This document shows, one piece after another, positions 29 to 410 of a stretch of 4,535 nucleotides of DNA. The notes under the pieces were generated by a model. The model was not told the DNA's origin. It worked only from the letters and a program-made list of their open reading frames with translations, and searched no databases. Every line of letters starts with the position of its first letter. The first letter of the stretch is position 1. Both the position numbers and the translations under genes were made by a program. Source of the DNA: a virus (taxonomy: Duplodnaviria > Heunggongvirae > Uroviricota > Caudoviricetes); IMG/VR virus record IMGVR_UViG_2675903289_000012, one strand, 5' to 3'.

Positions 29-410
29 CGTTAAAACATCTGCAGATAATGACGTTGACTTGGATACAGATGGATTCAGACAACTGAGGATATCGTGCCC
101 ATCCCCTTCTGCCAGCGGTGCGATTATATTGAGAAAAGCTTCTTATGAATTCGGCAAAAGTATAGGTGTATTTGATTTTGCAAACAATGCATCACCAGCG
201 ACGATGACATTTTTGATCCCAATATATAAAGATGATGATTTTGATTCAGATACTGTTGGTTTTACATTTGCGTTCAAGATGCCAAGAGGCCAGTTTTTTG
301 TAGATGTAAAAGAAAACGGGAATATCAGAGCTGGAGTTAATGTTAATGGCGAGTCGGGAGTGACCTACGAAAATTGCAAATTGAATATGAAAGATATTAA
401 TGATGATTAA
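15..410 (+). CDS. Hypothetical protein fragment; probable 3' remnant of an AT-rich gene truncated or displaced by the IS1 insertion (Asp-rich, acidic C-terminus ...KDINDD)
   Basis: Open frame runs from inside the IS1 end to TAA at 408-410. The listed start is a TTG within IS1, and an in-frame TAA lies just upstream in the IS1 sequence as recalled. First in-frame ATG is at 204, with no convincing SD. Composition is clearly lower in GC than the downstream genes. No family recognised. Confidence 0.35.
   Translation: MESLPVKTSADNDVDLDTDGFRQLRISCPSPSASGAIILRKASYEFGKSIGVFDFANNASPATMTFLIPIYKDDDFDSDTVGFTFAFKMPRGQFFVDVKENGNIRAGVNVNGESGVTYENCKLNMKDINDD

Follow-up and report, generated by a model that had tools for sequence, protein, structure and literature searches.

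The window analysed here, a stretch of 4,535 nucleotides from a tailed-phage record, begins inside one IS1 element and ends inside another, and the DNA in between belongs to a Mu-like tail module. The features of this stretch, with coordinates counted from its first nucleotide, are as follows:

1..28, plus strand: last 28 bp, at the IRR side, of an IS1 of 768 bp whose body lies beyond the window, upstream of it; they match the reverse complement of the IS1 terminus GGTAATGACTCCAACTTATTGATAGTGT exactly.
29..37, no strand: right-hand copy of the 9-bp IS1 target-site duplication, CGTTAAAAC; the same 9-mer precedes IRL in the viral contig L009 and in the complete genome L037.
30..410, plus strand: codons 35-160 and the stop codon of a 160-aa moron gene of PHROG 5586, a pseudogene fragment identified by profile and nucleotide match.
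416..445, plus strand: Rho-independent terminator of the moron, a CCGCCA/TGGCGG stem followed by T7, from hairpin and folding analysis.
446..456, plus strand: downstream edge of the cassette, with GGAG at 448-451 as the ribosome-binding site of the N-like gene; moron-less prophages align from about 453 onward.
457..1848, plus strand: Mu N-like DNA-circulation gene, with which the native tail genes resume past the moron (Pfam DNA_circ_N, E = 3e-36).
4485..4535, minus strand: end of a second IS1 in the opposite orientation, splitting the baseplate J gene, with the duplication GGGGGCGCA in L037.

Coordinates to the right of 3650 are shifted against the true sequence, since the masked runs of N are overlong when compared with L037 (501 N at 3650-4150 for 477 bases, and 236 N at 4223-4458 for 216 bases).

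The frame at 30-410 runs open on the plus strand for 126 codons and closes with a TAA at 408-410. A frame of this length would stay open at its own base composition with P = 4e-5, and a single one of 20,000 shuffled sequences did so; its openness is not expected by chance. The preliminary description of this DNA had noted a frame abutting the IS1 end, compositionally unlike everything downstream, acidic at its C-terminus and devoid of a credible start after the junction, and all of these features were recovered. Positions 1-28 are an exact IS1 end, the fragment has 37.4% GC (29-410, GC3 31%) against 54.5% GC (GC3 54-55%) in the tail genes at 457-3648, and the predicted product ends in ...KDINDD. 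The in-frame ATGs at 204 and 279 give only stubs of 68 and 43 aa, the in-frame TTGs at 60, 129 and 213 lack a ribosome-binding site and a further in-frame TTG, at 15, lies upstream of 30 within IS1; a ribosome-binding site was found ahead of none of the in-frame starts of the fragment. The terminator that had been assigned to the frame is likewise real, with a stem at 416-438 and a T-run at 436-442 (ΔG −14 kcal/mol, z = −3.05). An Rfam scan of positions 1-700 returned sub-threshold matches on this hairpin only, and a scan of the window for the sigma-70 consensus returned no match.

Related genomes do contain the uninterrupted full-length gene. Positions 29-460 are found without interruption in 11 complete E. 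coli genomes at 97.5-100% nucleotide identity, and at 100% in E. coli FDAARGOS_944 (L001), where the ORF (WP_000594909.1) encodes 160 aa annotated as a hypothetical protein and the frame of the window corresponds to its 3' 126 codons. When one genome per species was scanned (185,579 species), the gene appeared in E. coli and in S. flexneri only, and the S. flexneri copy is likewise intact. It is flanked on one side by a 649-aa tape-measure gene and on the other by the Mu N-like DNA-circulation (DNA-circularization) gene, in a contractile tail module whose further genes carry the Pfam Mu gp44, gp45, gp46, gp47 and gp48 domains. A homologue of 49-50% identity occupies the same slot in phage vB_EcoM-720R4 and in an APEC plasmid. 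We regard 29-410 as very probably the promoter-distal fragment of this 160-aa moron gene, in a Shigella sonnei prophage that is degraded and has a Mu-like tail module. The earlier suggestion that the frame is the 3' portion of a horizontally acquired gene agrees well with the finding that it comprises codons 35-160 of a mobile and compositionally foreign gene. As a separate observation on the E. coli locus, the tail sheath gene of the FDAARGOS_944 prophage is split by the IS4-like element ISEc60 (L001 781-1971), so that the bearer of the 100%-identical intact moron is itself decaying.

Morons are defined as extra DNA relative to related phages, of deviant GC content, equipped with a promoter and terminator of their own and expressed from the repressed prophage (PMC3594210). 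Among 50 E. coli genomes harbouring the N gene at 90% identity or above, the ORF was present in 11. The distance from the tape-measure stop to the N start is 15 nt in L043 and L044 and 596 nt in L001, and the alignment of moron-less prophages to the window starts only at about 453. The cassette, an AT-rich ORF with its own terminator, is thereby about 580 bp in size. At the five tail-module loci for which both flanks were measured, the gene has 34-40% GC and the flanking tail genes 44-57%, a gap of 11-21 points; in E. coli/Shigella the values are 37% against 52-55%, and similar gaps were found at the Yersinia, 720R4, P0011 and P0012 loci. Of nine loci examined, eight have a hairpin followed by a T-run 3' of the gene, and the sequences of these hairpins are mutually unrelated. 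The regions upstream of the gene showed little conservation between subtypes when aligned, and a scan for sigma-70-like promoters ahead of the intact gene in L001, covering the 67-nt spacer and its vicinity, was negative. The proposal that the gene had once been an independent transcription unit therefore holds for its terminator but found no counterpart in such a promoter. By its presence and absence among related prophages, its GC content and its terminator the cassette is a moron, the promoter being the one defining feature that was looked for and not found. In L048, called genes lie only 16-17 nt to either side of the ORF, and this tight packing hints at co-transcription with the late tail genes. 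However, the called start of the L048 N gene (5471) overlaps a clear hairpin and T-run after the moron (5453-5515). The true start is probably an ATG about 40 nt downstream, in which case the packing may be an annotation artefact.

The protein and profile searches proposed in the preliminary description placed the gene in PHROG 5586, with E = 9.7e-89 over profile positions 1-161 for the full-length protein and E = 2.6e-75 over positions 35-161 for the fragment in the window. The gene is thus catalogued, where the preliminary description had called its family unrecognised; PHROG 5586 is annotated as of unknown function. Neither the fragment nor the full-length protein nor distant members had a significant match in Pfam, NCBIfam or PDB sequences; no Pfam family scored above threshold for ten PHROG 5586 members, the PADLOC defence-system models gave no match at E up to 1, and a literature search found no paper on the carrier phage or the protein accessions. 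An exhaustive profile search of 1.84 billion representatives yielded 18 matches, which include the large repeat proteins P0017, P0018 and P0020. On inspection, P0017 was discarded as a compositional artefact of Cys/Ser/Thr repeats.

Distant members of the family are 24-43% identical and occur in two settings. In the first (P0011, P0012 and, with a HIRAN gene intervening, P0021) the gene occupies the post-tape-measure slot of divergent Mu-like tails, and the second is the maintenance region of phage-plasmid-like contigs of about 20-40 kb (P0019, P0022, P0024, P0027), where the neighbours are genes for IncFII RepA, ParA, a CI-like repressor and toxin-antitoxin systems. This dual occurrence points to mobile cargo and not to a part of the tail. 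The dN/dS ratio between subtypes is 0.09-0.27 and no copy has internal stops, and by these sequence measures the intact gene is judged a real coding gene under purifying selection. One metagenomic phage (L049 2387-2974) was seen to carry a HIRAN-domain gene behind the tape-measure gene and ahead of its PHROG 5586 homologue; apparently, the slot has room for more than one gene of cargo.

In each member whose N-terminus is complete, a Sec signal peptide is predicted that ends in AxA-K, a signal-peptidase I site. The E. coli/Shigella subtype combines AQA-K at residues 17-19 with LTSC at 12-15, a possible lipobox under the pattern [LVI][ASTVI][GAS]C at the end of the signal peptide, while most other subtypes have AxA-K sites only. 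In Yersinia enterocolitica (L035 5960-6010) the homologue is annotated from MMLISCC, with five residues only before the cysteine, and an upstream ATG AAA AAA CCT in another frame runs into a stop; its signal peptide may be frameshifted or its start miscalled. Every mature sequence that is complete has two conserved cysteines. The structure prediction that had been suggested for the fragment was informative for the family. An AlphaFold2 model built on a 13-sequence alignment confidently predicts an up-and-down beta-barrel of eight strands with an N-terminal helix packed against it; a 5-sequence alignment had given a pLDDT of 40. In the model one conserved cysteine sits beside the first strand and the other in the last strand, and owing to this placement they are proposed to form a C57-C150 disulfide, which is probable. 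From these predictions we infer that the intact product is a Sec-exported periplasmic barrel, possibly lipid-anchored in one subtype.

A Foldseek search with the model against PDB and BFVD returned nothing at E < 0.001. The similarity of the predicted barrel was 7.1 to Tp0751, about 6 to avidins, 5.5-5.8 to PliC, MliC and PhiA and 5.6 to a T6SS immunity protein, and many unrelated barrels were equal or higher. Homology to MliC/PliC was rejected after an hhalign comparison of alignment A4 with E. coli MliC (validated against 2F09) aligned the signal peptides only, at 22% probability. As modelled, PHROG 5586 has a calycin-like barrel fold that cannot be filed in any characterised family.

By analogy with known systems, the intact protein would be made in lysogens and would act in the periplasm as a binder or an inhibitor. 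Its most plausible target would be the tail tip or the cell-wall hydrolase of an incoming phage, resulting in superinfection exclusion; a periplasmic toxin or small ligand could be the target instead, though this is a less specific proposal. A role of this kind, anti-phage or inhibitory, is offered as a tentative possibility. The broader proposition is equally doubtful at present, namely that PHROG 5586 could comprise Sec-exported, disulfide-bonded barrels which, carried by temperate enterobacterial phages in a self-terminated cassette, would act in the periplasm as a new type of superinfection-exclusion protein or hydrolase inhibitor. If it were true, the S. sonnei copy would represent a recently lost defence function.

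Three known systems bear comparison. HK97 gene 15, the original moron, adjoins the tape-measure gene, and its product blocks DNA entry of the superinfecting phage (PMC3594210). The likeness lies in a discrete insertion into the tail operon by the tape-measure gene that is absent in close relatives, in deviant GC content and an own terminator, and in a small envelope-targeted product, here a predicted one. In contrast, HK97 gp15 is an inner-membrane protein whose gene lies upstream of the tape-measure gene (PMC3594210), whereas the PHROG 5586 product is a predicted soluble or lipid-anchored barrel with a signal peptide, encoded downstream of the tape-measure gene, and no promoter was found for it. 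The periplasmic lysozyme and peptidoglycan hydrolase inhibitors MliC/PliC (and PhiA) have no sequence relationship to PHROG 5586, whose protein differs from MliC/PliC also by its extra, predicted N-terminal helix. Llp of phage T5 and Cor of phages phi80, N15 and T1 are receptor-masking lipoproteins, small and exported, that are encoded in or beside tail genes, protect the infected or lysogenic cell from further phage and target FhuA. They share with PHROG 5586 the small exported protein (predicted in our case) encoded beside tail genes, but most PHROG 5586 members are without a lipobox.

The intact protein may instead be a lipocalin- or avidin-like binder of small ligands, or a host-directed fitness or virulence factor, having no part in exclusion or inhibition. 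We consider this rather unlikely: no lipocalin or avidin family of Pfam matched, and a position by the tape-measure gene or in maintenance regions is more typical of functions directed by phage against phage (PMC3594210).

Very improbable is a genuine assembly or structural component of the tail or baseplate kept in the same slot of divergent Mu-like modules. That reading draws on the fact that the E. coli, Yersinia, 720R4, P0011 and P0012 subtypes, at 36-74% identity to P0001, all have the gene at this position, and on the tight packing of called genes around the ORF in L048. Against it stand about 39 of the 50 E. coli prophages, which have near-identical tail genes and yet no moron, as well as the terminator and the drop in GC of 11-21 points relative to the neighbours, and the homologues located in phage-plasmid maintenance regions, away from tail genes. 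Phage tails assemble in the cytoplasm, which is at odds with a Sec signal peptide. Ordinary Mu-like tail sequence had itself been considered as an identity for the frame. A tape-measure C-terminus or other tail protein was rejected, as the tape-measure ORF ends 67 nt before the gene starts in L001 and lies upstream of IS1 in L009, and no tail domain of Pfam matched either the fragment or the full-length protein; the moron is a separate gene without tail homology.

What befell this moron in S. sonnei is apparent from sequences that extend beyond the window, which itself holds only the right end of IS1 and the right copy of the duplication, the retained 5' part being seen in genomes of 100% identity. 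The viral-contig record L009 has a junction identical to that of the window and contains the complete 768-bp IS1, from IRL at 3232 to the end of IRR at 3999. The 9-mer CGTTAAAAC stands at both sides of the element (left copy at 3223-3231) and occurs as a single copy in the uninterrupted L001. Upstream of IS1 in L009 are the first 34 codons of the gene, its GTG start, ribosome-binding site and spacer, and the whole tape-measure gene. Six complete genomes (L036-L041) are identical to the window at all of its unmasked bases and have the same junction coordinates, and they too carry the 768-bp IS1 with its 9-bp duplication and, upstream, the 5' codons and the tape-measure gene. Shigella sonnei is the name borne by entries for the exact N protein of the window and for the partial ORF calls on contigs of 4.2-4.4 kb. 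The gene is thus split by IS1, with its 5' part kept beyond the element and no deletion. In the preliminary description the 5' part had been taken as removed by IS1, an assumption that the codons found in L009 and the six genomes contradict. In these genomes IS1 entered by simple transposition, duplicating 9 bp of its target; it split the moron gene after codon 34 and parted the ribosome-binding site, start codon and signal peptide from the rest of the gene. The fragment has accumulated no decay since the insertion, and because it is still 100% identical to the intact E. coli copy the event must be recent.

The copy in the window is a pseudogene, any product of which would be devoid of the export signal. 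The transposase genes insA/insB of the IS1 are oriented in the same direction as the fragment and read toward it, the insB stop (TAA 11-13) precedes the in-frame TTG at 15 by two bases, and one annotation (L040) calls the 68-aa ORF from ATG 204. The fragment could thus be imagined to be still expressed and functional, either through IS1 read-through re-initiating at TTG 15 or from ATG 204. This too is very improbable, as the in-frame starts have no ribosome-binding site, any product would begin without the signal peptide and some of the N-terminal helix, and one from ATG 204 would be missing half the barrel. The fragment matches intact copies because the insertion is recent, and this match is no evidence of selection. 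Read-through from IS1 could at most yield a cytoplasmic, signal-less product. IS1 can also cause adjacent deletions, and the window, beginning as it does inside IS1, would on its own be compatible with the loss of the 5' part and preceding DNA and with an orphan fragment abutting unrelated DNA, but in L009 and the six S. sonnei-type genomes the same junction has a 9-bp duplication without mismatch and, directly upstream of IS1, the 34 codons absent from the window as well as the tape-measure gene; this, together with contigs of the same size class in thousands of assemblies, leaves next to no room for that account.

The second, inverted IS1, which begins at 4485 of the window (L037 13985-14752), splits the baseplate J (gp47-like) gene and is marked by the duplication GGGGGCGCA. 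The window is hence the stretch between two IS1 copies, and as such it recurs as a contig of 2-5 kb in thousands of short-read assemblies of S. sonnei, in which it gives rise to partial 'hypothetical protein' calls. In L036-L041 (1-21392) the locus is a prophage remnant between bamD/rluD and smpB. Nearly all head genes of this remnant are lost, with a Peptidase_S78 remnant left, and the sheath gene is preceded by elements of the IS4 and IS3 families. A poly-A tract near the end of the gp44/P-like gene (2876-2927) was also seen to vary, with seven A in the window, eight in the intact E. coli L001 and six in L038; in the window the P frame reaches 2927, encodes 360 aa against 351 aa and shares 23 nt with the gp45-like gene. 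The probable explanation is a frameshift in the homopolymer along with further decay, or else an assembly error in some of the records.

In all these respects the locus resembles the IS-disrupted prophage genes of Shigella, with a 768-bp IS1 and a 9-bp duplication splitting the gene, a second IS1 4.4 kb away in baseplate J and IS4- and IS3-family elements nearby. It does not differ from them and is a textbook case. The window adds one more IS1-inactivated prophage gene to S. sonnei, which is normal Shigella genome decay and by itself matters little: a real but ordinary instance of IS1-driven decay that has struck an uncharacterised moron. The intact family has few members, is under purifying selection, has a confidently predicted fold and moves between two kinds of temperate element, with a terminator behind it in either setting. 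This makes it a well-defined and inexpensive choice for plating-efficiency screening aimed at new periplasmic functions in anti-phage or envelope protection.
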